From Rhizaria sp. SCN 62-66 (Eukaryota), in NCBI GenBank assembly GCA_001724265.1, contig MEDY01000297.1:1-64000 (forward strand): DNA of 64,000 nt, read 5' to 3'. Shown in pieces: positions 40,001-63,510 of this stretch (the stretch's first letter is position 1; each line of letters starts with the position of its first letter). A model generated the notes under the pieces. It was given only the letters and a program-made list of their open reading frames with translations. It searched no databases and was not told the DNA's origin. The position numbers and the translations under genes are program-made.

Positions 40001-40862
40001 CTGCTGAGGTTGAGGAGACTGCGACTAGGTCTGGATCTGATTCTGTGGGAGCTTAGGGGGAGTCTTCTGAGCCTGTTGAGGCTGAGGCTGGGGCTGAGAC
40101 TGAGGATGAGGCTGAGTATAAGCCTGGGGCTAGGTCTGAGCCTGGGGCTGAGGCTGGGTTTGGGCTTGGTTCTGAGCTGCCTGCAGTAGGTTGTTAAAGT
40201 GACTCGTGACGCTCAAGCTGCTCGTATTGATCGGCGCGCTGGAAGTACTGCTACGAGCGGCTGCGCTTGAATTCGCACTCACATTCGAGTTACTTGCGCC
40301 CGCAATCGCGCTCACGTCGTTGGTCGAGCTCGAGCTAGCGCTGCCGTTATGGGCGACCGCGCCCTCAACAATGTCGTTGTTCTTGCGGCCCTCCTTTGCG
40401 AGGTACACGGGGACGTAGGTGCATGTGGGCCGCACACGCAGCAGCTGCGAGCGCGCGAAGTGGAACGCGCCGTCGCAGAGCACCGCGGCAATGCCTTGGC
40501 CCCTGTGAAAGGTCGTTCAGTACAGTGCAAGTATAACAAGATGGCGCGTGTGAGCTCGAGATAGCTACGATGTATCCCGAACTAAGATGCTGAATGTTCT
40601 TGTCAAGGCCAACGTACCGGTGGGACTTGGGAACAAAGGTGTGAATAATGTCGAGCACAACGTCGCCGTTGGGTGTCGAGACGAGGTTATACTGCAACAG
40701 CGCCGTTGCCGAAGAGGAAGACTGTGGCTGCCGCGCGCTAGCTGCTGTCGCTGCGGTGAGTGAGATGCGGAACTCGCCGCTCTGCTGGTCCACCGCGGGC
40801 ACATGGCGCACGTCGCGCCAGGTGTACGGCGCCGGCGCAGCACGCGGGGCCGTGGAAGACAT
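34095..40862 (-). CDS. PARG: Poly(ADP-ribose) glycohydrolase with an N-terminal NATD1/YjdJ-like GNAT domain; two in-frame TAGs and one apparent frameshift near 38730
   Basis: Exon 40862-40618, intron 40617-40503, then continuous coding sequence. GNAT motif HTFVPKSHRGQGIA..VRPTCTYV. PARG motifs VASLLACALFG, AKLDCVFQYF, catalytic DFANKFLGGG..VQEEILF..PEC and TGNWGCGAFGGD. TAGs at 40130-40132 and 40025-40027. Stop TGA. The PARG core (34095-38597) is secure; the fusion is less certain. Confidence 0.75.
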
Positions 40863-41354
40863 CTCGTAGATTCAACACAACGACACGCAAGGCGCGCTTT
40901 GCTTAACTGTCTTTCTGGACAGCAAGTAGCAAGACATGAGAAAGACTTGGTGAGATGTTAGTAAGTGATACAAGTAGGAAACTACGGATTTAATTTGTAA
41001 CTAGTGTGATATACCCACTGACGGATGTTTTATGGCAGATATAGCACCCCCGATTCGACATCACTTGAGGGCGGGCGATCCAATCGCCCTGAAAAGTATT
41101 TGTGGTCGAAACGTTTTTCGGCCCTTACCAAATTGTATTTACGCTTCGACAAACAAGAAGAGAGCGCGGGACGGGAATCGATTGATACACGTGAGTCTGA
41201 CCGTCAGTAGCATATTCATTCACATATCGCGTTTAAATTGCGATTCAATACTTCCACACTACATATATTCTCTATAAGCGGTCAAAATTTCCTCTAACAA
41301 TCCCGCCTTCGCCCCACCCCTTGCTCCCCTCGCACCCCACGCCTAGCGCTCGTC

Positions 41355-43738
41355 ATGTGGGGCTCTTCCGAGGCTCTCACGGCGCTCAAGTCGAAGCTGT
41401 CTTCGACGCCCGCCACCACCGACGTCAGCCGCACCCGCGTCGCGAACACATTTAACCTGCAGCACCGCGCTCAGGAGGAAGAGGCCGCCGCCGCCGCCGC
41501 CGCTGCGGATAGTACGGCTGTGGCCTCCTCGTCCGTCGTCTCGCGCTCCGCCAGCAACAAGGCCGCCGCGGCAGCCGGCGTCGACGCCACCGGCGCTGCC
41601 GGCGCCGAGGGCGCGACGCCCCTGCTGGCCGTGGCCGTCCCGATCATCCAGACCGTCGGCGACGCCGCCCCTCACCCCACCTCAGAGACCGCCAACGCCA
41701 CCGGCGGCGCCAGTGCGATCTTGAACGGCTGCACCGTGCGGTCCGTGGTGCTGGACGCGGGCTCCTTCCTGGGCAGCGCGCGCGTGGAGCGGCTGGGCCC
41801 TGACGTGAACTACTACACGATCGACGAGGTCGTGACCGAGATCAAGGATCCGCGCTCTAAGGCCCTCTACGACGCGTTCCCGTACCCGATCCGCATCGCA
41901 CCCGTGTTCCTTTCGTCCCTCCGCGCGGTGTCCGAGGCCAGCAAGGCCACGGGCGACTACTACGCGCTCTCGGCTGTGGACCGCAAGGTGATGGCGCTGG
42001 CGTACCAGCTCGAGGTCGCGGCCCATGGCATGGCCAACCTCAACCAGCACGCCGCCTCGGCCGCCGCCGCCGGGACTAAGCCCGCGCGCCGCCTCAACAA
42101 GCCCAAGGCTAAGGACAACGCCACCACCAAGAGCGGGGCGAGTGCCGAGAACGATGACGACGAGGAGGACGCGGAGGTGGTTGCCTACGCGCGGCTCTGC
42201 GACGACGTCTCCGTCGCCCCCTTCGACGCCTCCCTGTTCGTGACGGCGACGGCCGAGGACTACTGGAGCTTCGCAGGGGTCGATGCCGCCGCCGCCGCCG
42301 CCGAGGAGGCCACCGCGCTCGCTACCGCCACCGCCACTGCCGCTGCCGCCGCGACTGCCGCCGCCGCTGCCGCTGCCGCTGCTGCCGCCCCTGCTGCCGA
42401 GAAGGCCTCCACTCCCGCGAACAGTCACAGTAACGCCGCCCATAGTACCGAGGCGGGCGCCGACGACGGCGAGTGGACCGCTGCTCCTTCCAAGAAGGCC
42501 GCCCCCAAGAAGGACGCCAACGGCAATGGCAACACCGCCAAGAACGCCGCCAAGCCCCAGGCCATCCCGGGCTTCGGCTCGGGCGACTGGGTCACTCCGC
42601 AGATGCTCGGCGTCAAGGCTAAGTACGTCCACATATAGCGCAGCTTTCATGCATTATTATTTCGCTTTAGTTCTATGTAATTCTGTAGTAATTTTCGTAT
42701 ATCACGATTTGTGTTTCTCTAAGCTCACATGTTTCACTTGTTCCGCTAACTTTGTGCTGTTGCGCTCTCCCTAGGCCCAAGGCCCCCGCCGCTCCTGCCG
42801 CCGCCGCTGCGGCGCCCGAGGAGGCCGGCGAAGGCAAGAAGAAGGGCAAGAAGGGCAAGAAGGCCGCCCTGCCCGCCGCCGCCAGCGCCGCCGCCGTGGC
42901 CGCCGCCGCCGCCGCCGCCGACGCCGCCGTGTCCGGCCAGGCCAGCGCCGCTGCAACTGCGGCTGTGGGCCCTGCCCCGGCCTCTGCTGCCACCGCCGCC
43001 GCCGCTGCTGCCGCTGCGACCCCCACCGATTCCGCCTCTGCGACCGCCAAGACTTCGCTCTCCGCCAGCGCTGCTCCCTACACTGCGTCTGCGTCTGCGG
43101 CCCAGCTGGCGACGGAGGCGTTCTTCTCGGGCGGCGCCGCGGGCTCCGACTCGCTCCCCGCGCACGTGTCTGCGAAGCTCCCGCGCTCGCGCTCGACGGT
43201 GGCATGCTTGACGCACGACCTCTCGATTCAGAACTCGCTGCTCCACTGCGGGCTGCGTGTGCTGACGGGGCAGGCCGCGCTGGCCGTGCAGCAGGAGCGT
43301 CGCTTTGTGCTGCGCTGCTCGTCGTGCTTCACCGTGTGCGGCGACATGGGCCGCCAGTTCTGCCCCAGCTGTGGTGGCCACACGCTCTACCGCGCCTCGG
43401 TGCACACCAACGCGCGTGGCGAGGAGAGCTACCGCTGGCGCGAGGGCTTCCGCCAGATGTCGACCAAGCGCGGCACGCGGTACGCGATCCCGACAATGCT
43501 GGGCGGGAACATTGGCAAGCGGCAGGACCTGAAGCTGCGCGAGGACATGATGCCGATGCGGCGCCGCAGGGACGTCAAGGCCGAGGAAGCGGACCGCCTG
43601 GGCGTGCTGGCCTCCACCGAGGGCGGCTTCGAGGGCGTCGGCGCGCACTTCGGCTACGTGCGCAACGAGCGTAGGGCCGAGGCCGTCGTCGGCTACGGCA
43701 GGAAGAACCCCAACCAGGTCCGCAAGTTCAAGGGCTAA
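41355..43738 (+). CDS. NOB1: 20S pre-rRNA endonuclease NOB1
   Basis: Exons 41355-42622 and 42775-43738. PIN domain VVLDAGSFL, VVTEIKD, TGDYYALSAVD; WVTP; VACLTHDLSIQN; Zn ribbon LRCSSCF..FCPSCG; GRKNPN. Stop TAA. Confidence 0.92.
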
Positions 43739-44275
43739 GCGAAGCTAAGAAAATCAGCTCTTGGGCTGACGGTTCTGCTTATTTGTTATATGCTTAGGGA
43801 GATAGATTATTTGTTGTTCCGTGATTTTGTATGAGACTTTGTTAATCAAGAAAGAAATACATCTTATGTTGTTGTCTATTTTCTCTTCGTCAACGATCTG
43901 GATGAGCTTCAAGTGCTTTTGTGTTTGTTTGGGTCGGTCGATTTCGCTATTTTTGAGAACCACTGTTGCTCGGCGAAGCGGCGGTTGGCTCGATGGTGAG
44001 GTAACGGATTGATTTGGGACCCTCTAGAACTCGCGTTATGCTCGTTCAATTGATATGCTGGTGCTTTGTTATATAGCCAAACGATAGTATTGCGCTAGTT
44101 CTTGATATAAAATTCCCTGAATGCGTGATTATCCCTTCAAAATCGCATCCTCTAGTCCTCACTTGACTTACTGTCTGCTCCCTCACTCGCCCCTCCTGCT
44201 TTCCCCTGCACACCCATGTAAACCGATTCTTACTACTTTTCTAGCGCTTGTAAGCGTAGATTAATTGCGCCCAGC

Positions 44276-46103
44276 ATGGCTGACGAAGGAGGCTTCGTGA
44301 GCTTCAAGGGCGTCATGCTCTGCAGCCGGCCCCCTGTCGTGGCCGCGCCCCCCCCCCGCATTGAGTAAGTTATATAACATTCTATTCTCTAGCGTCTCTA
44401 TACACTCACTGTATAGGGTCCTTTTATGCTAGTCATATATAACACGCTGCTTAATATTTATAACCTGACATGTACTCAAGAATGTCACGATGTGACCGCT
44501 CTAGACCTCGACATATCCCCAACTCACTTTCCCTTAACTGCTTCGCCGCCTTTCTGGTTCTCTCCTCTTCAGCGAGGGCATGGTCAAGATGCTGAACCGC
44601 CCCGCGTTCGTCTCGACGATCCAGGTTGAGTCCGCGCCCGGGCTTGCCCCCGTGCGGTCCCAGGCGCGTCCGCAGCCGACGTCAAAACCCAAGGGCAGCG
44701 ACGTGACCTACCGCCACAAGCAGTGGTTGGCCAAGCTGCAGACCGAGCAGTCGGCGCTCAACGACATGCTTCAGGCGCGTGCGGATAAGCTGGAGGAGAC
44801 GAAGCGCAAGCTTGCGGCCAAGGCCACCGCTGAGCGCAGCGCCATCCGCACGATCAACGCCGACGACACGCTGACCGACGAGCAGCGGACCGTGATGCTC
44901 GCCGCCGTCGTGGACCCCAAGAACAAGGCCAATGACCCCGCCGTCGCTGCCACGATGCGCTCCCCCGTCGGCGTCGCCGCGACCGAGGGCGCCAGCACCA
45001 CATACGAGCCCACCTCGGCGCCTCCGCCGTCCAATAGCAACAAGCAGCCCCCCACGGCCACGTCGAGCAGCTCCAGCTCTGCAGCCAGCGTGGTCGCCGC
45101 CGCGTCAGCGGCCGCGTCTGCCGCCCCGCGGCAGTGGGTGCGCCGTGCACGCGCCGCGAAGCCCGCCTGGGCGCAGACTGAGGCCGAGAGTGAAGAGGCG
45201 CAGGACGCCGAGGCCGACGAACTGCTGTCCTTCGCCGCGGGGCTGGACTACGACCGCTACCTCGAGGACGTTGAGGTCCGCGAGGCGCTGAACGTACGGA
45301 TTACTATCACATAACAAATATCTTCGATAATATCAATTAAGACTTACTTTGTTCATGACTTGCAAGGAACTTGATCTCACTTCATTCTTCTCTTTTCCTT
45401 CTGGCACTATCGCTCTTCTTCCTGCTTTCGCTTTGCTTGCATACAGTTTGTGAAGCGCAAGGTGCGCAACGTGGAGCTCGAGCGCGAGCGCGCGCGTCTG
45501 TCCGCTGACGCCGCCCGCCGCAAGGCGCAGGCGCAGGCGCGCGGTGAAGTCGGCGCCGACGACGACCAGTTCGAGTGGGTCGAGCTCGACGCCGACGGGC
45601 TCACCGCAGAGGAGGCGATGCTCAAGCGCAGGGCCGACATGCTCTCGCGCATCAACAGTGGCAACGGCGGTGTCAATGGCAACGCGGCGTAGCTGGAGGC
45701 CGGCTGGAACAACAGCACGCGCACTGACGGGTACAACGGCGCCGGTGCGCGGACGCCGGTTGTCGGCGACATCAAGTCAGGCCGCCCCGGGATCGGCAAG
45801 GTGCACTCTGACGCCTCGATCAAGGCCGTCGCCGACCGCCTTGCGCTTGCACAAACCACTGCGAGCAGCAGCAGCAGCAGCAGCAGCGCGAACGGCAGCG
45901 GCGGGATGGGGGCCGCGATCGTGCCGCCCAAGGTCGTGGTCATCTCCCCGACCGACGGGACCGTGATGAACGCCTCCGCCGCCGGCACCGAAGGCGGCGG
46001 CAGCAACGACAGCAGCGTGAGCGGCGGGGCGCAGGCCCGGAAGGCGGCGCGCGAGCAGCGGGTGTCGGGACTGCCGTACCTGTACCGCAACCCGGCCATT
46101 TAA
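44276..46103 (+). CDS. Hypothetical coiled-coil protein (~488 aa) with one in-frame TAG
   Basis: Exons 44276-44364, 44573-45293 and 45447-46103. Starts FKGVMLCSRP, contains KPAWAQTE and LLSFAAGLDYDRYLEDVEVR, ends LPYLYRNPAI-TAA. TAG at 45690-45692 lies mid-exon. Confidence 0.75.
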
Positions 46104-46894
46104 GGGCTGCCGCGGTCTAAGTACCTCCATGCAAGTGCAGTCAACGCAGGAAGCAAGCAAGTCGTTCGTGTGACGCTGCTGTGTGGGCTGCAAGCTGCTG
46201 TTTCTTTGTTTCATGCCGTTTCTACGTTAGTTTAGTATTGTGTTGCTTTGTCTGTTTGTTTCAAGTTATTTTATTGAAAGTGGTCGTGTTATAATTGCTG
46301 TCAAGAGCCTCCGTTATGTTATATTGAGTTAGTTTGTGTGTCATAATGCAGTGTGTCGTCCCTCACGAGTTCGTGGGTACGAGTGGGGACTTGTCGTCCG
46401 CACTGCGCCGCATTTGTTTACTTATAGAAAAGAACAGAATACATCTAATAAACGTAATATCTATGCATATTGGATATCATTCGTCTGCAGCTGGTTTCGT
46501 ACCAACTCGCCCTCAAACGCCTCAATCGTTTTGTTTCCACCACAAACCACGTTTCTGATTAAAAGGATTACTTCGTTGACTACTGGTGACGAGACCAACG
46601 CCCAAGGTGGGTTGCTGATTCGGTGGTTTAATGGGAGATATAATTCGTTGGTTTGTTCTGCGACAATGTGATTTGTCATTTAAGTTGAGTTTTCTACGTA
46701 TCTCTTACATTACACACTCGGCTTGGAGTAAATTAGCTCTCTCCCAGCCATTCCCTAGTTCGGTGATCAACGCAGTGTCCTCTCACACCCTAACCCCGCC
46801 TCCCACGCCCTTCCTGCGCTCACACCATCGCTCTCTCTTTCAATCCTCCCACCCCCGTTTCGCTCATTTGCCGCCCTACGCCGTAGCTCTGCCT

Positions 46895-47494
46895 ATGGAG
46901 CCTGACTACAACATGGACGGCAATATGAACGCCCCCGCGGCCGCAGCCGCGCCCGTCGCCGCCCCCGCGGAGAAGACGAGTCACCCCGTCGCGGTGTTTT
47001 TCCACCTCTTCTTCAAGGGCATCGCCATCTTCTGCTTCACCATCCTACGTCTCTTCACCGACTCGTTCATCGTGACTTTTATCCTCTGCATCCTCTCTCT
47101 CGCCTTCGACTTCTGGGTGGTCAAGAACATTACCGGCCGCCTTCTCGTCGGGCTGCGGTGGTGGAACGAGATCCTCGAAGACGGCTCCAACAAGTGGGTC
47201 TTCGAGTCTCGCTCCGACGGCAAGGTCGTCTCGCGCTACGACTCGCTCATCTTCTGGGGCGGCATCTACCTTACCCCGCCCGCGTGGGTCGTCCTGGGCC
47301 TCCTCTTCTCGGGCTTCTCCGTCCAGTGGCTCATCATCGTCATCGTCGCTCTCGTGCTGTCGGTCGCCAACCTCGCGGGCTACTGGAAGTGCCAGAAGGA
47401 CGCCTCCGTTAAGCTCAAGCGCTTCCTCGCCACCACCGTCGTCACCGCGGCCGTCAACAACATGAACCAGCCCCAGGGCGGCAACAACGCCTAA
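46895..47494 (+). CDS. TVP23: Golgi membrane protein TVP23 (DUF846)
   Basis: Intronless. Motifs HPVAVFFHLFFK and DFWVVKNITGRLLVGLRWWN..WVFES. Stop TAA. Confidence 0.93.
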   Translation: MEPDYNMDGNMNAPAAAAAPVAAPAEKTSHPVAVFFHLFFKGIAIFCFTILRLFTDSFIVTFILCILSLAFDFWVVKNITGRLLVGLRWWNEILEDGSNKWVFESRSDGKVVSRYDSLIFWGGIYLTPPAWVVLGLLFSGFSVQWLIIVIVALVLSVANLAGYWKCQKDASVKLKRFLATTVVTAAVNNMNQPQGGNNA

Positions 47495-48173
47495 GTAAAA
47501 CAACAAGCAACAAAGAATGCATCATAGTCTTAACGGCTACGAGAAGAGTCATCAGCTTCCTTGCGGAGTAAGATTGGCTACGTTGAACTCTTTGCTTGTG
47601 TCGCGTTTGTATGAACAATGCGATGTTGTATTATTATTGTTTTGGTTATCTAGCATTTTATTTTATGTATTTGTATTTGCAGATCCCTGACACTGTCTCT
47701 CCAGTCACTCCAATTCACTCGCATTGATGCCTGTTGCGAGTTATGTTGACTGATAGTGCTCTCGTGTTTGATGCATCTTTGGAGTATTTCTAGTATATTA
47801 TATGTCGATAAGTATTGTTTAGGTTCAATACACTCAAGATTACCTCGATCGTCATATACGAGTCTGGTTTGTTCGAGAAAGTGTATTAACGCAGAGCCGC
47901 TACTCTTTAAATCTGGAAGTGTTCTTCAAAATCCTGCACGGCACAGCTACCTAGCATGAATGCAGTGGCCGTGACCTATATTTGGCCTTATTAAGCGCCG
48001 TTGCGCTCACTTAACATGCAAGCCGGCCCACAGCAAGTCAAACTGTCATTCAGTCACGCACGCATGATAGGGGCGCATCATTGACAACGCATCTCACAGT
48101 CGAGTGGTATCACACTCGCACTCGTGTACCATAGTCCCTGTGCCTTGCTGCCCGCATTATTCGATAGCCCGCC

Positions 48174-48718
48174 TCAGTTGGCGTTGGCACTGTTGTCCTC
48201 GTCCTCGTACTCGACGAAGTCCTCGGGGTCGTAGACTACTTGGATGCGCAGCGAGCAGCTGGGGCAGGTCGCGATGTCCTCGCCGTTCTTCAGGTCCTTG
48301 AGCGTGATGTAAAACTTGTCGCCGCAGGGGCACGGGTAGAAGTACGCCTCCTAGAGTGGAAAGCAGAGTCGCAGCGAGGGGCGAGAGAGTAAAGACCGAC
48401 GAGAAGGGGTGAGCAACAGAGAAGACAGTAATGACAACTCAAGACACTATACGACGATATACCGCAGTAAAACTAAGATAAAGCATCGAAAAATGTGTAG
48501 AGTGTCCGAAAAGCATAGTTTTATATCGACAACAAAGAGTTGACCTGACAAACTGCTCCGTTTTGCGTGGGTTGCCGTACCTGGTCCTCGTCGAACTCCA
48601 TGTCTTCGATCTCAACGCGGTCGTAGACGCCCGTGTCATCGTCGTTGGCGAGGCCGAGGAGCTCAATCGGGATAATCTCCACGCCGTCCTTCGTCTTCTT
48701 GGGCTCGGGGGCGGACAT
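48174..48718 (-). CDS. DPH3: Diphthamide biosynthesis protein 3 / KTI11 (CSL zinc finger)
   Basis: Exons 48718-48581 and 48350-48174 give [45 protein letters not shown]. Stop TGA. Exon 2 is missing from the ORF track. Confidence 0.93.
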
Positions 48719-49281
48719 TGGGGCTGGGGGCAAGCGCGGCGCAGCAGAGGAGGGGTCGCGGGGTGGGAGTGGTGGGGGCTGTGTGCGTAGCGCGGGGAAT
48801 TATGTGCAGCGCACGGGTATGACCGTGGATAGGGTTATTACAAGAAAGCAGATGAGCTCACTGTGCAAAAAGTATTGCTTCAAAATTGTGCATCTAGTGG
48901 ACGTCTTGGTATGGTACTGAGCTTGCTTTTGCTTAACCGCTAAGAGCCCCTCAGTCTCACCGCGGCCAAGTCTGCAGACCAGCTGTGGTGGGACGCTTTC
49001 CGAGCTAATTCTGGGTTCTAACATTGCTTAACAGCGTAGTTGCACAAATAATTGATTTTAAAGTTCTTTTAACTAGTAGTTTCTAAGCTTGCACACTCTA
49101 ACCCTGAGTATGTTCTGTTATATTTCCGGCTTTGTCGCACCCCGGCGCCAACGGCTAGATCTCACCATGCATTCTTCTTCCCTCTTCTCTACAGCTTGTA
49201 TTTATTATTGAGTCCACAAGCTCGATCTGTATCAAGTTTATACAACTCTTGTATTTGTGCTTTTGGTATTGAAATACCCTT

Positions 49282-52200
49282 ATGTCGCGTTCACGCGGTT
49301 CCACAGCTGTTGCTGCAGCACGCAGCAGCAGCAACAGCAACAGCAACAGCAGCTCTCTGAAAGAAGCTGAGGCTGCCGATGCGGCGCCCATAGCAGCGAC
49401 TGCGCCCGCGTTCACCCGTGCGCTGTCGCTGGTCCCCGCCTCCGCGGCCCATGGACGGTACTTCGGCCCCCGCGGGCTGCTGCTGGCCGCCACAGAGGCC
49501 TTGCTCACGGTCGCGTTGCTGCCCCACCAGCGGCAGGGGCTGGGCTGGCTCTGGCACCGGGAGCGCTGCTGCGCCTCCGCCGTTACCACAGCGCCTGCTA
49601 CATCAACAGCAGCGGCAGCAGCGACTGCGGCAGGCTTGCTGTTGCGCGCCGCGCCGGCGCCGCCGCTGTCGGTGCGCGGGGGGATCCTGGCCGACGACTG
49701 TGGGCTGGGCAAGACGCTGCAGGTCATTGCGCTGGCGGTAAGCGACAGGATCCACTTACACGGGCTGAGTGTCCCCTCAGACGCTGAGAGCCGAAGCGCC
49801 GCCGCGGAGGCCAGTGCAAGCCCAGAAGGAGACCGGAGTCCGAACACCTCCGATGCCGATGACGATGCTACGAGGACTGTGTTAAGCGAAAACGTGCTTC
49901 TAAGTGCTCTAAAAGGCGGTGCGCGCGTGTCTCCCGCGTGGTTTCCGCCCGACAATGTAAGTGCGGCAGGTGCAAGTGTAAGTGCCCCGAAGGCGGGCAC
50001 GCTGATCGTGGTGCCACCGGTGCTGTTAGCCCAGTGGCGCGCCGAGATCGCCAGGTTCGTGCGGCCAACGCTGCCGACGGTAGCTACTGAGAGCAGCAGC
50101 GCTCCTGTCAGCAACAGCGCTACGAAGGCTGAAGCGATGACAAACACTCAAGCGAAAACTAAGGTTGGCTCAAAGGCTAAGGCGAAGACTCCGACCTCGG
50201 CTAAGCGCAACGCTCGTGTTCTTGTTGATTCTGACAGTGACAATACCAGCAGCAGCAGCAGCAGCAGCAGCAGTAGCGGCGACAGCGACAGCGACGAGAC
50301 CGCTGACAGCGACTCAGACAGCGGAAGCGAGAGTAGCAGCGGCCACAGCGAGGGCGAGAGTGGCAGTGACAGCCGTCGCCGCAGCAAGAAAACCACCACA
50401 AAGAAAAGCTCTGGCAACAAGCTTGATTCTCGCAAACGATCCTATAGCAACGATGCGGGGGCTGCTCCACCGCCGCAGCCGCTGCGCCGCGGGCCTGTGG
50501 TTCAGTCCTTCCTGGAGGCGGTGCGCCGCGATGGCAGCGCGGTGCAGTGCAAGCTGACCGTGAGCACGACGCTCGACCTGACTGACCCGGACCAGGCCGC
50601 AGCCACCGACAAAAGCAATGGGGATGATGAGGGCAGCATCGTTAGCACTGATAGTGTCAGTGCAGACGAGGCTGATGTTGTTGCTGGAGGCGATTGGCGG
50701 CCTATTTGCGTCGCAACAACGAAAGTGAGTGCGACTTCAAAAGACGCATATCCTGAGACTGTCACTAAAACAGAGACTAAGACAAAGACAAAGGTTGTTA
50801 GGCCAAAGGATGGCAGCATTGAGCAGCAGCATCAGTGGTGCATGGAGGCTATCCTCGCGCAAAGCGGCTTAACTCCAGCTCTGGATGGCATTACTTCTGC
50901 ACCGGTTGCAGCTGCAGCCTTCTTTGACTTGCACCCAGTCTCAAACAATAACAGCATGAACTACAGCAGCATCATCACCGATTGCGAGCTTGACAGTAGA
51001 AAGCTTGCTACCAACTTAGATTGCGATAAGTCGAAATATCCTGTCACAGTCACCGTTCCCGGCCAAGCGGATGCCAGTAACACTGCCAATGCTGATCTCA
51101 CCGCCAAGGCTCGGAGCGATATTGCCGACTTCGCTGCTCGTGCCGCTGCTGTGGCCGCTGCCGACGCCAAAGCAAAGCGGCTTAACTTGCCCGTGCCCCC
51201 GATTGCGACTGCAACAGTGCGCGCGCTATTTCTGCGCGGCTCAAGCGCCAACAGCAGCAAGAGCAAGAACAACAAGAGTGTGAAGAGCGGAAACAGCCGC
51301 GTAAACGTCAAAGGCAAAGTCAGCAACAAAGCAAAGAGCAGGGCGATCGATGACGGCGAGGACAACAGCTGCGACATCATCGGCAACAGCGACGACTTCG
51401 ACGACAACGATGACGGCTAGAACAACGACTACGAAGACTGCGCTGCGCTCACGGCCGGGGACCTCGCCACATACGACATCGTGGTTGTATCTTACCAAAC
51501 CGTTCTCGCCGCACACAAGCTCTGGCTTTCACAGTCACAGTCTTTGCCGTCGCAACTGCAGTCTCAACAGCAACAGCAGCAGCAGCCGCCAGCGCTGTTC
51601 GGCGCGGCGTGGACGCGCGTGGTGCTCGACGAGGCGCATGTCACGCGCGCGGGCGGGGCCGTTGCGGACGCCGTGGCGGCGCTGCGAGTGCGGGCGGCCA
51701 GGAGCAAAGCTGCCGGTGCCGGCGCCAGTGCGAATCAGCAGACTAAGAGTGTCGCAATCAGTGTCGTTGACAATATTGTTGCTGCGACCGTCGCTGCGGC
51801 GTACAACAACGCGCGCGGTCACCCAACCGCTCTCATCGCTGCCCGCGGTCACTCCACGTCTGCCTTCACAGGTCAGCCGGTGCCGCAGCCTCCGCGCTTG
51901 CCGCTGCGGCCCGGCGGGCGGTGGGCGGTGACGGCCACGCCGTACAACAACGGCCTCGCGGACATGTACTTCCTGCTCGACTTCCTGCGCGTGCCCGTGC
52001 TTACGGTCGGCGGCGGCGGGCTCGCGATGGGACAGCTGTACTGCAAGCGCGAGCGGCAGCAACAACGCCAGCTTGAGAACGAGCGGGAGCGCGCGCAAGC
52101 GAGTTCCTCTGCCAAGGCGGGCTGGCTTAAGCACGAGCAGACGAGCGAGAACGACCGCGTCGCGTTCAAAGGCGGCTATGCGTCAACAGCGAGCAAGGCG

Positions 52201-54789
52201 ATGAGTGCGCCGAAGGCAAAGGCAAGTGACAAGATCGCTCTGGCGTGGCACTTGCTGACGTCATCGCCCATTCCCGACCGCGGTCTGTCGCAGCTGGCGC
52301 AGGAGCACGACTGGGAGAGCGTCACGGAGCACAACTACTTTGCAACGCTCGCGAAGAACACGCAGATCTCAGCTCAGGGTGCTGATGCGAGCGCGATCTC
52401 TGGCGGTTTAACTACCCCCTTAGTGGTCGACGTGCCCGAGCTGCGCAGCGTGCTGACAAGGCTCGCCGAGTGCGCCGACTGGGCGGCCGCCGTGGCGCCT
52501 GCTTGGCGGCGCGCTGAGCGGCTGCAGCTACAGCAACAGCGGCAACTGCAGCAACGGAGTGAAAGTGCAAAGAATGCAACTGTTGTTGCGGACAACAGTA
52601 GTGGCAGCAGCGCAGCAGCGAACGCCAATGATGGCGTGAGCAGTATCGATGCACTGACTGCGAGTCTCAATGCTTTGTCGCTTAAAAAAGACGAGCAACC
52701 TCCGCAAAGCAGCAACAGCAACACTGACGGCACCGATGTTAAAGCCACGAATCCCATTCCAGCTCTAAGGGCAGTCCCAGCTGCAGCCGTAGCCACAGCA
52801 GTCACCGATCTAGTTACAGCTTCACCTACTCTACCCCACTCCGAGGTCGATCGTTTGCTCTCCAACCACCGACAAGCCACCGCGGCGCAGCTGCGGCCGC
52901 TGCCGCCGACGCAGCGCGCCGCCGCCCGCGCCGCTACCGTGCTGGGGGAGTTTTTCGGCCCCCTGCTTCTGCGTCGCACCAAGGAGAAGGACCTGCAGCG
53001 GCCGCCGGCCCGCCTGGTGACCGTGAGCGTGCGCGGCAGCAGAGCGGAGCGCGCGCTGATGCGCGTAGTCGAGCAGACGTAGTACGAGAACGGCCAGAAG
53101 CAGCTGGCGGCGGCGAGCAAAAGCAGGGGCAATACTAAGAGCAACGGCAGCGCTGCTGGCGGAGTCAGTGTGGGGCTGAGGCTGTCGATGCTGCTGCGTC
53201 GCGTGGCAGCGCACCCTTGGCTGGCTCCGAGCGAGGCCATCGAAGGTGTGATGGCGGTGATTCGCAAGCACAACAGCAAGAACAAGAAGAGCACTGACAC
53301 CAATAAGACTCAAATTGATGTTAACCAGGAGAGCAGTGCAAGCCCCGCGACTAAAGATGCTGCTACTGTTGATTTGACACTTGACGACTTGACGAAACAG
53401 CTTGCTGCACTCTCCGTTAACTCTGTCGAGGCTAAGCCTCCAACTGATGCAGAGACTAAGCCTCCCGTAGCGGTTGGTAGCGGCCGCATCCCACGCAAAG
53501 CCAAAGAGATCGTGGCAGTGCCTGTACCTGAGCTTCCTCCTGTAGCTGTGGCAACAGCTGCCACTGCTGCTACTGCTCCACAGAAGAATGTTAACACTTC
53601 TTCGAAGACCGGTACAACTACCAGCGCAGGCGCAAACACGTCTCTGTCGCAGTCAGACTTGACGTCAGAGTCTCTGTCGCAGTCGCGGTCTACGTCCTCT
53701 CTGTGCCTCCCTGCGTTCTCGACCAAGACCCTGTCCCTGCTGCTGCTGCTCCAGTCCATCGCGCGCCGCGACCGCGGGGCCAAGGTCGTGGTCTTCTCGC
53801 ACTGGACCGCCGTGCTTACAGCGGTGGAGCAGGCGCTTGCCGTGGGCTACGAGGGCAGCGAGCAGGCCAGGAGGGTCTTCGGCGTGGGCGCGGGAGACTG
53901 TGGGCAGGGTGAGCAGTATAGGGAGCGTGAGCAGGGGAAGTCCGCGCTGACGAGTGACTGTGCGCACATGCAGGGGGAATGCGGGCCTGAGTGCGATGAT
54001 GACTGCAACGGTAGCTGCAACTCTAACTCCAGCAAGACTAACGCTAAGAACTCAAAGACAAAGACTGGCAAATGCAAGATCTCTAACGATGATAACTTCG
54101 TTGAGGACGATATAAGTGGCTTCAGCGACATCGACTACAGTAGTGACAGCGATGACGCCGATAACGATGACATTGCCTCCGATACCGTAAGCTCTCGCGC
54201 GAGCTCCAGCAAGAAGAAGACTGCACCGAAGGCTACTGCGACCGCCGCCGCGTCGGCGGCAAAGAAAGAGCAGCAGCAGCGGCGCCAACAGCGGCGGCTG
54301 CAACGCCTGCGCTCTCGCATGTGGTTCACAGCCGCATCTGCCACTAGCACAGCGCCGCTCGACGCAGACAATGACTGCCGAGGCAATAGTGCTACCAACG
54401 GAGTGCGTAACGTGTTTCGCATAGACGGCAGCATGAGCAAGGCCGCTGTCGAGCTCGAGCTCGCCCGCTTTAAGGCCTACAACCACGCCAACCACGCTGA
54501 CGCGGGCGGAGGCGGCAGCAACAGCTCCGCGGTGCTGCTGGTATCGCTCGCAATGGCCGGCGTGGGGCTGAACCTGGTCGAGGCCAGCCACGCAGTGCTG
54601 CTGGAGCCCGCGTGGAACCCTGCCGCGGAGAAGCAGGCCGTGGACCGGGTCAACCGCGTCGGCCAACGGCGCGAAGTGACAGTGTGGCAGCTACGGGCCG
54701 TGCCCGGGGACCTGGCCGCCGTGGAAAGGCAGGGCGGGAAGCGCGGCGCGGCAGCCAGGGCAGTCAAGGCGGCGGTGGGGGGGCAGTGA
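49282..54789 (+). CDS. SNF2-family helicase, Rad5/Rad16/TTF2-like (~1835 aa), with two in-frame TAGs
   Basis: Three same-frame ORFs separated only by TAG at 51418-51420 and 53080-53082. Motifs in order: LLPHQ, GGILADDCGLGKT, TLIVVP, YDIVVVSY, VVLDEAH, TATPYNN, LLRRTK, HPWL, KVVVFSHW, RIDGSM, GVGLNL, WNPAAEKQAVDRVNRVGQ. Stop TGA. Confidence 0.88.
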
Positions 54790-55135: not shown

Positions 55136-57529
55136 TTACACAGCCTTGGTAGCCTTGTCGAAGTCCGCGGCGGAGACCTTGGAGAGACTGGCGACGGAGC
55201 CGAAGAGCCAGCTGGTGAAGTCGGGCACGGTCGCGATGGCCATCTTCTCGTCTGGCGAGTGGGCGCCCACGACTGTGAGCGTGGACGGAAGAGGAGGCAA
55301 AACATACGAAACGTAAACAAAAGAAATGATGAAAAAATGGCACAATTAACACAAATAAACGTAGAAAATGTTTTTTTTTTGCATATGAATTAACATTTCG
55401 TATTGAAAATAACATCATATTTCATTTTCTTGGTGATTAGATGATCAAGTCAATGCATTCGCTAGCGGCACGTACTGAGGGGGCCGATGGAGACGGCGTG
55501 GATGTCGGGGTAGACGCTCTTGATGGGTCCGCACTCAAGCCCGGCGTGCACGGAGTACACCTGCGGCGCCGGCAGCGCGGGGAAGAGCTCCTTGTGCGAT
55601 GACAGCACCGAGGCCAGCAGCGGCGACGACATCGCGGGCTCCCACCCGTTGAAGTACGCGAAGGGCTTGGAGATCTTGGCGCCGGCCAGCGTGGCAAGCG
55701 CGCGGAGGCGGCGCGCAGTCTCGTGCAGCTGGAAGTCGGAGAAGGAGCGGTAGAAGCAGTGGATCATGAAGTAGTCGCCCTCGGGGTCCGCCTCGTCGGT
55801 GGTGCCATGGCGGCTCGCGGCCGCAGCCTCCTCGGCGGCGGCGGCCGCGGCGGCCGCGGCGGGCGTGGGGGTAAGGAGGACGATGGAGAGCGCGTTGGAG
55901 GTGTCGACGTCGCCGGCAACCTCAGGGGAGTAGCGGATCACGCCGTGGGGGATGCTCTGCACCAGCGCGGCAGCGCGCGCCGTGCACTCGGTCGTCAGCG
56001 GGCACAGCAGACCCGCAGACTCGGCCGCAGTAGGAGGCGCAGCGGCGGCGGCAGCGGCCACGGGCTCGAGCGGCGCGGCAGTAAGCTGCAGCGTCATGCC
56101 ACAGAGCGCGCGAGCCTTGGCGGGCTCCGACGCGAGGGCCTTGGCCTCCATGCCCGCGGTCGACTGGGCCCCGTAGAGCCCCGCCGAGGCCTCGCCCAGC
56201 TTCGCCTTGGCCTCAGGCAGCAGCGACTCGGTCACAATGCCCGTGAAGAGCGCCGCCGCGGCCGCGGCCACGGACGCGGCGGCCGCGGCGGGCACCACGA
56301 GCGTTGCCGTGGCGTCGCGCGGGATCGCGTTGGGCGCGTTGCCGCCGCTGAAGCTCGCCAGGCCGAGCCCGTTGCCGCTGGCGCCGCTGCTAACGCTCGC
56401 GGTGTAGGCCTCGGTGGCCTCGCCGATGAGGCGGGCCATGACCTGGATGGCGTTGGCGCGCGCGGAGGCGGCGTCGACGCCGGTGTGGCCGCCCGCGAAG
56501 CCCGAGAGCGCGAGCGTAAGCGCGACCGCGTCCGTCTCAGCCGCCGCTGCCGGCACCGCGAAGGCGGCCGTGGCGGCGGCCGTGGCGGTGGCGGCCGTGG
56601 TGTGCGCGTCGACGGTGACGGCACCGAGCTTGCCGGCGGCGGCGGCGGTCTTATAGGTGGTAGCGACGCGGGCGAGGGGCATGAAAAGCTTGCTCTCCAT
56701 GCCGCCCGCGCAGCCGACGCACACGCAGTGGTCCTCTTCGCTGTCGACGTTGAGCAGCGCCTGCGCGGTGAGGAAGGGCGCGGGCGCAAGGTTGAGCGCG
56801 CCGCCCATCGTCGTCTCCTCCTCGACAGTGAAGAGGCACTCGAGGGGGCCGTGGGCGACCACAGACGCGTCGGCCTCGAGCAGCGCCAGCGCGGCCGCCA
56901 CGCCGATGCCGTCGTCGGCACCCAGCGTGGTGCCCGCGGCCTGGACCCACTGGCCGTCGGCCGTCACGTCGGCGAGGATTGGGTCCGTGTCGAAGCAGTG
57001 GGTCGAGTCCATGGTCTTGCTAGTCACCATGTCGATGTGGCTCTGCACCGCGATGCGCACAGACGACTCGAAGCCCGGCGATGCGGGCTTGCGGACAAGG
57101 ATGTTGCCCGCGGCGTCGACGCTGAAGGGCAGGCTCAGCGCGGTCGCGACCTCCTCGATCTGGGGCGATGTGAAACAAGCGATAGTGAAGAGAAGAAGCA
57201 TGAAGTGTTGTTAAGATATGTTTCTGTGATGAAAGAAGCGCTTAAGACTAAGCCTATATACTATATTATGAACCTGGTGTGATCTAAAGTGCGCGATCGT
57301 GTGCAGCGCTAGATGCAGCATTAGCATAGTTTGCGGTGCGTTTACGTACCTTCTTGCGCATGGCGTCCTCCTTGTGCGAGGGACGGGGCGTGTCGAAGCA
57401 GAGGAACATGTACTTCCACACGTTGTACAGCGGGGTGCCCTCCTGTGCCGCGGGCACAATACGCGAGAACACGCCCTGGGAGCGGGCCGTCAGCAGCGAA
57501 GACGCGGACAACGCCGGGATAGACGACAT
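55136..57529 (-). CDS. pepD: M20 family aminoacyl-histidine dipeptidase, PepD-like
   Basis: Exons 57529-57350, 57159-55476 and 55272-55136. Motifs PRPSHKE, QSHIDMV, GTTLGADDGIG, EEETTMGGA, NVDSEED, HAGLECG and SIGP..GAHSPDE. Stop TAA. Confidence 0.88.
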
Positions 57530-58037
57530 CTAAGAGAGAGCATCGAGAGTGATGGGGACAGGAGATGAGGTAAGCATTCAAGACACGCCTACAGGTAGAT
57601 ATATAGCAAATCTTGCAGGCGCAATTTTGTGATAGTAACTTTTAGCAGACTTATAATCTTGATGTCGCTAGAATATGCGCAGCTACGATCAGAATAGTGA
57701 GATTACACCTTGGCAAGTAAGCCGGCGGAGACTCGGCAGATGCGCAGTCGGCGACATGATGTCGGACTTGACTTTAAAAACATCTGAAAAGTGTTGCTAT
57801 ACTCCGTTAACAGGGCCAGTGCCGCATTATCATAATTTTTCTTGGGGCTTATATATTATACCCGATTTATACTTTCTCCAGATCTCATATAGTGCCTTAG
57901 GCAGACCTTGCCGTAGACACTGCCGACAGTCGCAATAACGGGTGTCTGAAGTTCGTGGTGTGCGCAGGTCGGCGACCATAGTAGCAACCTCAACGCTCGT
58001 CTCGTCTTACCGCGTCACTACTTAACGTGTTGGTGAA

Positions 58038-60050
58038 ATGCGCCCGCTGCTGCAGCCCGGCTCGGCGCTCGCCAAGCGCCTCCGCACCCTCCACAAGGCC
58101 AAGGGTCGCCAGGCACAAAGTACGCACGCAAACCAAGCGAAAACGTTCCCTGATGATCGATCTAAATCACAACCTCTTGCTGTTACACTGCTTTCATATT
58201 ATTTACAACATTAACTTGTATTTGCCTGTTCACTCCTGACGTGTCTTCTAACTTTCATGACTGCCTACGCATTCTGCTCCGATTGCTGCTCTGTTCTTAC
58301 GACTGCTGCTGCTGCGTGTTTGCAGGCAGCTTCCTCGTCGAGGGCCGCAAGACCATCGAGCACTTTATGTCCCGCCGCGGCGCTCCGCGCACGCTGCTGC
58401 TGGGCCAGGAGCAGCTTGCTGTGCTGGCCGCCGCCGCCTTTCCAGAGCACTCGCCCCCAAGCAGCCATAACTACAACAACGACAACCACCGGGAAAACAG
58501 TGCGACTGCGACGAGCGCGAGTGACCGCGCGCCCCCGCCGTCGCTCTCGGCCTCGGTCTTGGCCGCGTCGGCGCCCGTCAAGCAGCTGTGGCGCGCGGCG
58601 CTGCCCGGGGCCGTGGTCGCCTCGAGCCAGGCGCTCGAGCGGTGCTCGCATGCGCAGACCGCCTCGGGGTTTCTCGCGGAGTTCGCCCTCCTGCCCACGG
58701 TCACGCGCGTGTACGCAGTCGCGGGCCGCAGCCACACCAGCAGCAGCAGCGACGACGGCTGTGGCCCTAGAGGCGGTGACAGCGAGTACGCCGATGCGAA
58801 CGACGGCGACGATACCACTGTCAACACCGTGAGCAGCCGGGGCGATGGTGACTTCGTGCCCACATACGCGCTCCCGTTTCCCCCTCTTGCAGCAGTTTCT
58901 CCTGTCAACAATTGCGAAACCAAACTCAAGCTCGACAAGAGCTCTCAGGACGTTATCCCAGTCCCCACCGACCCCACCACAGCGACATCCACAGCAGACG
59001 CAGCGTCGCCGCCGCCGCGGTGGGACTGGGCGGCGGGCGGGCTCGTGCTAGCGGGTGTGGCGGACCCCGGCAACGCGGGCACGCTTATCCGCACCGCGGT
59101 TGCGCTGGGCAGGCCACAGGTACGCCAGCGAAGACGCACACACACACACACACAATATCCCGCACTGTCATGTCACTGTACTTAATTTGTTTCTGTTTTT
59201 GCCTCTCGTACGAGCCATCGTCTTATTTTGATTGCGTTTTCTCGTTGCTCATATTGATCTCATTGTGATCTGTTCCTGCTGCCATCGCCTTCATATGTTC
59301 CCATCTGTTCTCATGTGTTCTCTCGCGCGTGTGCCCGTGCAGGTGCTGCTGCTGGACTGCGTGGACGTCTACAACAGCAAGGTCGTTCAGTCCACTGTGG
59401 GCGCCCTCGCCGACGCCGTCGTCGTCGAAGGCAGTGTAAAGGGCTTCGTGGGGTACTTAGACGGCCTCAGTCGCGGGAACAAGAACAGCAGCGAAGACAA
59501 CACTCTGCAAAGCGGCGAGAGTGAAAACGCCGACTCAGCGATGACCGATGCTGAGCAGCCCAGAGCTGCCTGTGCTGGCGCTGGCGAGCGCGTGCGTGCC
59601 CCGCTCGCGCCCTATGTGGTTTCGCTGGTGCCCGACGCCGCGGTCGACCTCACCGCGCTGCCCCCCGTGCTCGCCGCACACCACAGCGCACGCAACAGCG
59701 CACGCAACAGCGCCGGCGACAGCGTAGGCAACGGCAGTCGCGAGAGCGAGCGCAGCGCGGCGGTGCGGCGGCCGTGGGTTGTGGTGGGGTCCGAGGCGCA
59801 CGGCGTGCCGCTGGCGCTGCAGCGCGCGGGCACGGCGTGTGCACGCATCACCATGGCCAGCCCGGACTCGCACCACAACGGCGCGCCTGCCGCTGCCACT
59901 GCCACTGGCACCGCGAGTGCGAGTCTGAATGCGACTGGCCTCGGTCTGGCGGGGGCGGTGGGCTCGCTCAACGCGTCAGTGGCCGGGGCCATCGCCTGCT
60001 ACATCGTCGCGCGGGCCGAGGCGGGCCACGCGGGCGCGCGCGTCGTGTGA
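58038..60050 (+). CDS. SpoU/TrmH-family RNA 2'-O-methyltransferase
   Basis: Exons 58038-58119, 58326-59119 and 59343-60050. Motifs FLVEG, DPGNAGTLIRTA, DVYNSKVVQSTVGA, VVGSEAHGV and SLNASVAGAI. Stop TGA. Confidence 0.88.
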
Positions 60051-60882
60051 TGCTCGCGCGGATGGAGCGGAACTATTCGCTAAGATCATTAGTCACATGG
60101 TATTGCAAATGTCTATGAAGCGAGTTGTCATTAGCACGGATGTGCACGCCTCGTTGGCACGAATGGCGCTCAAATGCGGCGACGGTGAGACTGTGGAGGA
60201 AGTGAATGTTGCGGGTATTTATTCAGATGAAGATTTTCGTGATGCTAGTCTTTGTGCTAGAAGATTCAAAACGACGATTTACCCATCTTAAGAGGTCATC
60301 GTTCATCAAATATTTTTGACTCACCTCACTTAATTCCTGTACGTAGTACGTACAGTACATACAATTTTCAATGTTTACATGACTTGCCTACAGGCAACCA
60401 CTGCTCACCTAAGCTTCATTCACTCGAGTAAACTCGATCCAGGATATTTATCCAAATCTAGCCATGTCGCTCCTCATTTTGTGAATTGATAACATAACTG
60501 CACCATTTGATTGTGTGATGTAGGACAAAGGAACACACGGGAGCGAGACAATTAGCTTAAAAGGATTACTACCAGTGTGTGCGAGCCACAGCAGCCCTGT
60601 CTGTATCGGGTGTCTCTGTTGAACATCGTGTATCTTTCGCTTCTAATCGTCAAATGGGAAATAAATATTGGAAGTTGATTTTAGCCGCTAATTTGATACT
60701 GTTTTGTTTTTATATCAAACGAAAAACTGCCTCTCTGGTCTAAAAATCTCGCACTGCAATCCACTCACTCACCGTCCGTCTCGAGCTATCTTCTCCCGCG
60801 CTCTATACCACTATCATATCGCTTTGCATTTCTTTTAAATCGTGGTTTTTGGTGTATTCCTGTGTGGATTTCTGCAGACTAT

Positions 60883-63510
60883 ATGTCTAGTGAAACAGAC
60901 AAGTCTTCTCTACTCGAGCCACACCAGCTCGAAATCCCTACGCACTCAGCGGACAGCGAAACGTGCGACGTCCAGCCCGCGCTCGCCTCTGCCTCCACCG
61001 AGAACAGCGCCGACGCGGACACAGACCCCGACACTGATGTGTCCGTCGTGCCCGCCTCAGCCTCGACCTTGTTTCCGCCGCGCGCGTACGCGGCCGTGGT
61101 GCCGCGCCTACGCTTCCCGCGCTACGTGCACGGGCTCTTCTTCGCCGCGCACCTCGACGACCCGCCCGCGGCGTACCTCTCGCTGTGGCCGCACCGCCTC
61201 ACGCTGCTGCACTTCGCGCTTGCGGGGCTCGACGCGTTGGGCCAGCTTGACCTCCATGTGCCTCCCGGCAGCGCGCGCAGGGCTGAGATCGTCGAGTGGG
61301 TCTACAAACTGCAGGCCGGCGCAGCCAGCAGTGGCAGCAGCGGCGACGGCGGCTGCAGCAGCCACAGCGGGAGCAGCGGCGCTGAGGGCACCGTTGCCGA
61401 CAAGACGACTGGTAACTCTTGCATTGCTAGCGGCATGCTTGGCGACGGCATCAGCGCTGGCAGCAACGGCAACGCTCACAGTGCGTACACTGACAGCGTA
61501 GCTAGCCCGGTGACTGTGAGCCCATACGAACGCTTCCGCGCACTCGGCGGCTTTCGGGGCGCTCCGCTGATGCAGGGCGTTTACGGCAACAGCTCTAGCA
61601 CCCCAACCAATGCTGCCGCTATCCCACAACCGCAGCCGCAGCCGCAACCCCCCTGCGCACAGGCGTCGTCGTAGTCCGCCGGCTCGCCGTGCTGCCCACC
61701 GCCGCCGTCACCGTCTGCGCTGTACCTGGACGTGTCGACGCTGCCGTCGACATACAGCGCGCTCTGCGTGCTCAGCATCCTGGGTGACCCGCTCGACCGC
61801 GTGCGCCGCGCGCCGCTGGCCGCGCTGCTCCGCGCCTGCATACTGCGCAGCCGCAGCGGGGCCCGCGCCAGCGCTGGCGCGGTCGCCGATCCGAACTCGA
61901 TGGTTAGCAGGAGCAGTGGTGCGAGAGTTAGCGTGGAGAGCGCTGCTGACTCTGGTGACGCCGCGCAGTATGATTGCGACGCCGACGTAGACGCCGACGC
62001 AGACTACACCGACTTCAGCGACAGTGGCAGTGGCAGTGACAGTTGCAGCGACGGCGGCGGCGACAGCGATAATGTCCGTGATAATGAGGGCTCGAGTGCT
62101 CAGATGAATGATACCAAGACGAAGAGTCCCCGTGCTTCAAAGTCGACCTCTGAAAAGACCCCTGCGCCAGTGCAAGTGTTCAGCTCGCCGCTGCACGAAG
62201 AGGCGGACGTGCGGTTTGTCTACTGCGTGTGTGCGATTGCGCAGCTCGCAGACGCCGCCGCGCAGCGCAGCATCGCGCGCGACGCGGCACTGCGCGCCGC
62301 GACTGCAGCACAAAGTCCATAGCAGCGCGCAAGCGCGAGTACTATTACTAATGGTAGTGACGGTGACTATGCCAGCGGCGTGTCAGTGTGGGCCTCGGTG
62401 CCACTGCGCCCCCTCGCGGCTTATATTCGGTCGCTGCAGACCAGGGACGGCGGGCTCGCGCTTCTGCCTGCTGACAACGACAATAGTAGCGGCCACAGCA
62501 GTGACCGCTCCAACGACACATATGGATTTGATTCCCTCGCTGCTGTTGGGAAGCAGTTTTACGACTGCGACGTTGATGATGACACTAACAGTGCGAACGG
62601 CGGTCGTCGCGACTGCTGCTGGCAATCTCCACTTCCCTCCGCCGCTCACTCTGCTGCTGCTGCAACTTTCCACAGTACGACATACACGTGCACCGTGCCT
62701 CTCGGCCTGTACCAGCGGCTGCCGCGCCCGCTGCTGGCGCCCGTCAGCCTCGAGGGCCACGGCGGCTCTACCTACACTGGGCTCGCCGCGCTCACGCTGC
62801 TCGGGATGCGCGCGCGTGCACTGCGGCGGGGCGGGAAGCGGCGCACGCAGAGGCGGACGCCGCAGCAGCGCGAGCAAGCGGATGAACAGCCGCGGCCCCG
62901 CGCTGCGTCCGCCGGCCGCAGCACCGTCTCGCTGCCGCGCGGCCTGCTGCCCGCGGCGGCGGCACGCGCGGCGCTGCGGTGGGCGAGTCTGCGGCAGGGC
63001 GATGGCTTCAGCGGGCGCGTGGGCAAGGCGCCCGACAGCTGCTATGCCTTCTGGGTCGGCGCGTCGCTGCACCTGCTCGCGGGCACCGACGCCGCGGGCC
63101 GGCCGCGGCTGCGCACGCAGCGCACAGCTGGCAATCGCGCGTTTGTGGTGCGCGCGTGTGAGGGTGCGCGGGCGGGGTTCGGCCGCGACGCCGAGTCGGG
63201 CGCCGAGGTGTACCACAGCCACTACGCCGTCGCGGGGCTGGCGCTGATGCAGGCCGAGGACGGGCGCGACGCCAACAACGAGTGCGCGCACGGCTGCGAC
63301 GACGAACCGTGCGCGCGGTGCGAAAGCGGCTGTGAACAGGACGACGACGGCGACGGTGACGAAGAGGACGAGGACGAGCACCGGGCGGCGCACTGGCGTC
63401 TGGCCCCGATCGACCCCGTGCTGGGCATCTCGCGCCGCGCCGCGGGCACCGAGGGCGTCGCCTACCCGGGGCTGCTGCCGCGGGGCGACATCGAGCTCCA
63501 GTTTGAGTGA
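60883..63510 (+). CDS. PGGT1B: Geranylgeranyltransferase type I beta subunit (~875 aa), with two in-frame TAGs
   Basis: Single frame with TAG at 61672-61674 and 62320-62322. Motifs RLTLLHFALAGLDAL, IVEWVYKLQ, GGFRG, TYSALCVLSILGD, DVRFVYC, EGHGGSTY, GFSGRVGKAPDSCYAFWVG and YHSHY. Stop TGA. Confidence 0.85.

Follow-up and report, generated by a model that had tools for sequence, protein, structure and literature searches.

In the 64,000-nucleotide (nt) stretch of Rhizaria sp. SCN 62-66 DNA analysed here (assembly GCA_001724265.1, contig MEDY01000297.1, positions 1 to 64,000 of the forward strand; hereafter the window), the codon UAG is probably read as an amino acid, with UAA and UGA as the sole terminators. 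This is the best reading of seven TAG triplets that stand in frame in four genes, from which a sequence-only reading of the same DNA had proposed a non-standard nuclear code. Under it UAG is a rare sense codon, found so far in poorly conserved, low-complexity parts of these four genes, and when TAG is read through the joined open reading frames (ORFs) are 1838, 937, 597 and 242 amino acids long for a SNF2 ATPase, a geranylgeranyltransferase type-I (GGTase-I) beta subunit, a GNAT ORF and a two-exon gene, respectively. The genes and codons concerned are as follows.

49273..54789, forward strand: RAD5/RAD16-like SNF2 ATPase ORF, 1838 amino acids, intron-less, ending in TGA
51418..51420, forward strand: first TAG of the SNF2 ORF, residue 716, within an acidic insertion that precedes the conserved 'YDIVVVSYQTV' block by about 20 residues
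53080..53082, forward strand: second TAG of the SNF2 ORF, residue 1270, past the LLRRTK block and ahead of the Helicase_C lobe
60697..63510, forward strand: GGTase-I beta subunit ORF, 937 amino acids, with a probable start near 60883, ending in TGA
61672..61674, forward strand: first TAG of the GGTase-I beta ORF, residue 326, inside an insertion of low complexity
62320..62322, forward strand: second TAG of the GGTase-I beta ORF, residue 542
38723..40516, reverse strand: GNAT (Acetyltransf_CG) ORF, 597 amino acids, opening with a PF14542 fragment (6.3e-8) and continuing into a long tail of low complexity, ending in TAA
40130..40132, reverse strand: TAG of the GNAT ORF, residue 129, at the Q position of an (xQ)n dipeptide repeat
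40025..40027, reverse strand: TAG of the GNAT ORF, residue 164, at the Q position of an (xQ)n repeat
44538..46103, forward strand: two-exon coiled-coil gene, with a GTACGG donor near 45297, ending in TAA at 46101
45690..45692, forward strand: TAG in exon 2 of the two-exon gene

All seven TAGs lie in the frames originally assigned to them and in sequence rich in guanine plus cytosine (GC 0.55-0.71 over ±150 nt). Every TAA, TAG and TGA triplet of the window was scanned for coding potential in six frames, and a site passed when neither 100-codon flank contained one of the other two stops and the tested frame ranked first among the six on both sides, by a margin above 5. The codon table had been trained on 5033 codons, drawn from nine confidently assigned exon segments in seven other genes. 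Seven of the 49 TAG sites passed, and these were exactly the seven that the sequence-only reading had listed, with a minimum 60-nt GC nearby of 0.48-0.63. Three of 21 TAA sites and one of 197 TGA sites passed as well; all four are located within frame-keeping AT-rich introns (20385-20525, 23493-23663 and 26906-27100), where the minimum GC is 0.22-0.35, which bears out the earlier statement that TAA and TGA show no comparable read-through. Where other TAGs occur in long ORFs, they belong to introns or to untranslated sequence. Over the 100 codons downstream of each TAG the tested frame was the best of six at all seven sites, and the GC of the following 150 nt was 0.56-0.75, in contrast with 0.32-0.53 after 11 real gene ends. 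The frequency of the codon is low, at seven in about 14,100 exon codons or roughly 0.5 per 1000. A comparison of ORF lengths under three read-through codes was set aside, being uninformative in GC-rich sequence.

Evidence from homology comes from the two genes in which recognizable domains flank the TAGs. In the SNF2 ORF the PF00176 match (8.9e-27) starts before the first TAG and the Helicase_C match (PF00271, 3.1e-8) follows the second, while alignment to RAD5 (6l8n_A) gives four colinear segments in one frame, two of them between the TAGs (residues 160-191 and 501-545 as matched) and two after the second (767-803 and 1038-1088); only 1038-1088 is individually significant and the other three are weak. 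Judged by eye, what we take to be the DEAH motif and the QxxDRxxRxGQ motif are both intact. The GGTase-I beta ORF (PF00432, 2.2e-44) aligns with the rat subunit 1n4p_B in five ordered segments (136-213, 320-394, 498-517, 683-704 and 760-853) placed before, between and after both TAGs. Because these conserved domains stand downstream in the same frame, translation must, to judge from the sequence, go beyond the TAGs if the full-length proteins with their downstream domains are to be made. The entry for the SNF2 gene in the protein database consists of two 533-residue fragments, and a protein search around TAG 53080 matched only these two fragments of the window itself. No locus matching SNF2 or GGTase was found in the genome contigs and none in the viral contigs, and the search of metagenome contigs gave a single near-identical contig of 2968 nt. 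These searches thus yielded no orthologous locus of a relative in which the codon standing in place of TAG could be read.

For the other three TAGs the evidence is coding potential. The sequence-only reading had held that the frame reaches further family motifs in every case; this is so for the four TAGs of SNF2 and GGTase-I beta, but in the GNAT ORF and the two-exon gene the sequence past the TAG is only coding-like. About 430 codons beyond the two TAGs of the GNAT ORF have this character and carry no further family motif, because the PARG domain that had been joined to GNAT as one reading frame lies in another frame and another ORF, and a single joined frame is not supported.

34095..39056, reverse strand: PARG ORF (PF05028, 2.2e-58), about 1500 codons with zero TAG, ending in TGA

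The joined ORF of the two-exon gene (45375-46103) encodes 242 amino acids and has no significant Pfam family, one weak match falling below the cut-off. As to the border between GNAT and PARG, the two ORFs overlap by about 330 nt on the reverse strand (38760-39056 region) in different frames, and the frame of coding potential switches near 38880-38760 without an AT-rich intron; this could reflect two separate genes with a gap of only some 120 nt, an unusual junction or a frameshift.

The terminators point in the same direction as the in-frame codons. Among 15 modelled genes, including spliced models for bL9, SDR and PepD, translation ends in TAA in eight, in TGA in seven and in TAG in none; the TAA of the GNAT ORF is a sixteenth terminator if that ORF is a separate gene, and the count then matches the nine TAA and seven TGA given earlier. 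If TAG made up one fifth of terminators, a share assumed here as typical, its absence from 15 genes would have a probability of about 0.035. The base that follows also differs, G standing after eight of the 15 terminators and after none of the seven in-frame TAGs (hypergeometric p ~0.02), which are followed by T, C, C, A, T, T and C. No downstream motif of the kind that forms a stimulatory read-through context is shared by the seven. A 94-residue ORF that ends in TAG at 6564 was considered as a gene and rejected, its GC being 0.48 and flat across codon positions.

Introns of the window are readily told from the sequence around the TAGs. The 20 verified introns are 125-222 nt long, have a GC of 0.26-0.44, and begin with GTACGT-type donors (variants GTACGT, GTACGG and GTATGT) and end with YAG acceptors. 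Frame-keeping GT..YAG combinations can be drawn across each TAG site (1 to 53 per site), one of which, at TAG 53080, is a 54-nt candidate whose end is the TAG itself; all have a GC of at least 0.50, and zero frame-keeping candidates with a GC below 0.50 span any of the seven, in agreement with the claim that intron signals are lacking there. The introns are very uniform (for example 27718-27939, 42623-42774 and 20385-20525), and several are a multiple of 3 nt and keep the flanking frame, so that they mimic TAA or TGA read-through in naive ORF scans.

It should be emphasized that a number of observations weigh against a reassigned UAG. The sample behind the reading is 64 kb with about 16 genes, and the 5033 confidently coding codons on which the scan was trained contain zero TAGs. 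The seven in-frame TAGs are confined to a 24-kb part of the window right of 38.7 kb, with none in the approximately 8300 exon codons to the left (post-hoc P ~0.002). Random mutation to nonsense in these genes would give TAG in 60-64% of cases, so that seven TAGs out of seven is only modestly improbable (P 0.027-0.045). None of the seven stands on a conserved column of the RAD5 and 1n4p_B alignments, and when a composition prior is included in the model of residue context described below alanine, serine and glutamine lie within 2.6 nats, alanine and serine scoring as well as glutamine. ARAGORN and Rfam found no tRNA gene in the 64-kb window. The 40 of 208 sequence differences listed do not include what strain X4 carries at the seven positions, and no RNA contig shown bridges a TAG or an intron, while carry-over of DNA into the RNA libraries is possible. 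Confinement of the codons to four genes or fewer would not, taken alone, be surprising (P 0.20).

These points have to be set against the explanations that would leave the code unchanged. Sequencing or assembly errors are hardly credible as the source of the TAGs. The window comes from a metagenome assembly and depth was low, about 6x in the compared runs, in keeping with this explanation; however, a contig of runs X2/X3 shows 0 differences over 43501-47747 and 50304-53791 and thus repeats TAGs 45690, 51418 and 53080, and JGI contig L001, with one mismatch in 2968 nt, holds both SNF2 TAGs. Runs X2 and X3, which belong to different studies and years, do not differ in their contig tables or depths here; they may represent a single data set, and for that reason do not count as two independent confirmations. 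Error is excluded for 45690, 51418 and 53080, and no displayed contig spans 40025, 40130, 61672 or 62320. It could also be argued that the TAGs are removed from the messenger, either through RNA editing or because they sit in short GC-rich introns of a second, unusual class, and the frame-keeping combinations at every site, the 54-nt candidate ending on TAG 53080 and the want of a displayed RNA contig bridging a TAG would be in keeping with this. The candidates, however, all have a GC of at least 0.50, as against 0.26-0.44 in the verified introns with their length of 125-222 nt and GTACGT-type donors; the one at 53080 would delete a segment that aligns with RAD5; and seven such introns would all have to preserve the frame. 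We consider removal from the messenger very unlikely. Contigs from polyA libraries lie in SNF2 at 52835-53083 and 53911-54187, to either side of the second TAG, and in GGTase at 63181-63500.

The four genes might instead be recent pseudogenes or dead alleles that have suffered nonsense mutations of the CAG-to-TAG type. In favour of such decay, TAG is the likeliest nonsense product in these genes (share 0.60-0.64), the codons cluster in a single 24-kb part of the window, and two TAGs visibly derive from the Q position of CAG-rich repeats. Against this, seven nonsense codons are accompanied by zero frameshifts in the approximately 3500 codons of the four genes, no TAA or TGA stands in frame among them (P 0.027-0.045), and the catalytic SNF2 motifs and the prenyltransferase repeats beyond the TAGs are intact. 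In strain X4, which is about 98% identical, coding-sequence indels among the listed differences come in multiples of 3 and preserve the frame (6 nt in SNF2; +3 nt at 62585 in GGTase, past both TAGs), 1-nt indels occur solely outside coding sequence, and the three listed SNF2 differences are all at third codon positions. The lack of TAG terminators would, moreover, be a second coincidence, and decay of all four genes is quite unlikely. Unlikely, too, is the view that TAG is still a terminator across the genome but a leaky or ambiguous one, subject to near-cognate read-through or to a context-dependent choice between stop and sense that is tolerated in a few weakly expressed genes. The rarity of in-frame TAG (about 0.5 per 1000 codons), its absence from the 5033 confident codons of other genes, its restriction to unconserved segments and the existence of ambiguous codes in other eukaryotes, as reported in the literature, are all compatible with leakiness; but none of 15 genes terminates in TAG, the seven have no downstream motif in common, and the full-length SNF2 and GGTase-I beta proteins would each take two read-through events. 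Sense decoding of UAG, with UAA and UGA as stops, is thus the reading that we prefer.

Which amino acid would be inserted is a separate matter. The sequence-only reading had named glutamine as probable, and the context of the codons does favour it, although the lack of a TAG on a conserved column does not. TAGs 40130 and 40025 stand where strict (xQ)n repeats have their Q, and TAG is there one transition from the dominant CAG. A naive-Bayes model of residue context placed glutamine first, followed by serine (-7.9 nats), lysine (-8.0), glutamate (-9.1), leucine (-10.1), tyrosine (-10.2) and tryptophan (-11.1); the model is crude, and the gaps to serine and leucine are those among residues one substitution from TAG. 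Because alanine, serine and glutamine come so close once the composition prior is applied, and because no conserved column is involved, glutamine is a preference and not a result; given a reassignment, we regard it as somewhat favoured on sequence context. A hint of leucine, with SNF2 residue 1270 taken as the residue before Y in an 'E..lY' helicase motif, was dropped, the RAD5 alignment not reaching this site; in a manual alignment to what we assume to be the RAD5 motif, the motif corresponds to 'ERALM' upstream and the TAG at residue 1270 stands at a variable position. Gln-Thr codons (CAG ACC/ACG) directly precede three of the seven TAGs (40025, 40130 and 53080), which may be chance in Q-rich repeats or a context preference.

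In mechanistic terms, cytosolic ribosomes would decode UAG as an amino acid and UAA and UGA would end translation. This would call for a tRNA with anticodon CUA, most likely of the glutamine type, and for an eRF1 that no longer recognizes UAG efficiently; eRF1 is not among the genes encoded in the window. If the residue is glutamine, the change would be a UAG-only stop-to-sense reassignment of the type described by NCBI table 15. Because UAG is so rare here, its rarity could show an early stage of reassignment. On this proposal, which we hold tentatively and at somewhat short of an even chance, an independent UAG-only reassignment in a deep, unsampled lineage would have been caught at a point where UAG has gone as a terminator and is reappearing as a rare sense codon, mostly by change of CAG to TAG in unconstrained, low-complexity parts of weakly biased genes; the window would then offer a natural snapshot of codon capture in progress. 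GC at third codon positions (GC3) is comparatively low, at 0.70-0.75, in the GNAT, SNF2 and GGTase ORFs; the two-exon gene, at 0.86, is an exception, and PARG, at 0.72, is yet free of TAG.

UAG-only reassignment is already known in several lineages, and the present case is probably a further member of that kind. PMC11687900 and PMC5304391 place such codes in the rhizarian exLh (Leu), Iotanema (Gln), Scotinosphaera (Ser), Protocruzia (Gln) and phyllopharyngean ciliates (Gln, Leu), and thereby agree with the sequence-only reading, which had cited Iotanema, a rhizarian and some ciliates. In the fornicate Iotanema spirale UAG encodes glutamine and UAA and UGA are stops (PMC5304391; PMC11687900). 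The likeness to the window is that UAG alone is reassigned and UAA is kept as a stop, that glutamine is also favoured here, and that the implied anticodon CUA would be unable to read UAA. Unlike Iotanema, the organism studied here encodes an organellar bL9, is GC-rich and has AT-rich introns of 125-222 nt, and its UAG is very rare (seven in about 14,100 codons) and at no conserved position. In exLh (Sainouroidea) UAG is leucine according to PMC5304391, with 384 UAGs spread over 71 genes and most of them at conserved Leu positions, with 56 UAA and 15 UGA as the only terminators, and with UAG rarer in highly expressed genes. The restriction to in-frame UAG, the exclusive use of UAA and UGA as terminators and the uneven use of UAG are parallels to the window; in contrast with exLh, there are here seven UAGs in about 16 genes, none on a conserved column, and context puts leucine 10 nats below glutamine. 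PMC11687900 further describes UAG as Gln or Leu in phyllopharyngean ciliates and Protocruzia tuzeti and as Ser in Scotinosphaera, origins that are repeated and independent and in which, as here, UAG is decoupled from UAA; unlike in Scotinosphaera, serine is not favoured by context in the window. Under NCBI translation table 15 (TAG = Q) the four genes are all open with no other change, but the table is a formal description, and an open frame under it is not evidence of its use.

The relationships of the organism bear on how independent the case may be. The best non-self matches of the kinesin motor are 44-46% identical (aphelid, oomycetes, chytrids and animals), and those of the PARG core 41-55% (metagenome proteins, Acanthamoeba and Klebsormidium); in a quick PARG tree of 35 rows chosen from 120 listed matches the query stands by itself on a very long branch (2.45). 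No rhizarian affinity appeared in the kinesin matches, the PARG matches or the PARG tree, which together are a weak test, and no chlorophyte is among the named best matches of kinesin and PARG. TVP23 could be assigned in the protein atlas to its family only, with no closer placement. The bL9 protein matches bacterial and mitochondrial L9 in the PDB above chloroplast L9, in line with the organellar bL9 of the sequence-only reading. Such a gene speaks for a mitochondrion that translates, and would make a fornicate an unlikely fit. Nor does a 64-kb contig of 60% GC with about 16 genes and long AT-rich introns look ciliate-like.

Few nuclear codes split UAG from UAA. If the reading is true, the window would add an independent data point on the decoupling of the two codons, from a GC-rich, intron-bearing mitochondriate without a close sequenced relative. 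It is also of practical consequence that standard gene callers split such genes at TAG, of which the SNF2 fragments in the database are an example. Searches of the literature, supplementary files aside, found no report of UAG reassignment in a wastewater eukaryote or in a matching organism, and the terms 'genetic code' and 'stop codon' are absent from the main text of the one paper on eukaryotes of wastewater treatment plants that was checked. Sequence near-identical to the window was found in bioreactor, wastewater and activated-sludge metagenome runs, and parts of it also in a polyA metatranscriptome.

The window as a whole is about 60% GC, with GC-rich exons (GC3 0.7-0.9) and AT-rich spacers, and the gene set recognized by Pfam is ordinary for a eukaryote. 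It comprises the following, to which a small gene named by eye is added; coordinates are given for genes not located above.

cNMP-binding/RGS protein: Pfam match in the window
organellar bL9: Pfam match in the window, spliced model built
11083-21101, forward strand: giant PPC/UPF0669-repeat membrane protein, Pfam match
Ser/Thr kinase: Pfam match in the window
KIF12-like kinesin: Pfam match in the window
SDR: Pfam match in the window, spliced model built
PARG: Pfam match PF05028
GNAT fragment: Pfam match PF14542
NOB1: Pfam match in the window
TVP23: Pfam match in the window
48174-48720, reverse strand: small two-exon DPH3/KTI11-like CSL zinc-finger gene, ending in TGA, named by eye
SNF2 ATPase: Pfam matches PF00176 and PF00271
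55136-57349, reverse strand: PepD-like M20 dipeptidase (TIGR01893, 8e-85), spliced model built
SpoU methylase: Pfam match in the window
GGTase-I beta: Pfam match PF00432

The gene at 48174-48720, which lies below the length needed for the ORF lists, is presumably DPH3-like, a label based on general family features rather than on a family search. The giant gene has at least 10 exons, and its product combines a signal peptide with many PPC/UPF0669-like repeats and a transmembrane tail at the C terminus; its approximately 2800 codons include zero in-frame TAG. The PepD gene is a bacterial-type beta-Ala-His dipeptidase that carries eukaryotic introns, and TAG 55462 lies within the last of these, the stop of the gene being the TAA at 55136.

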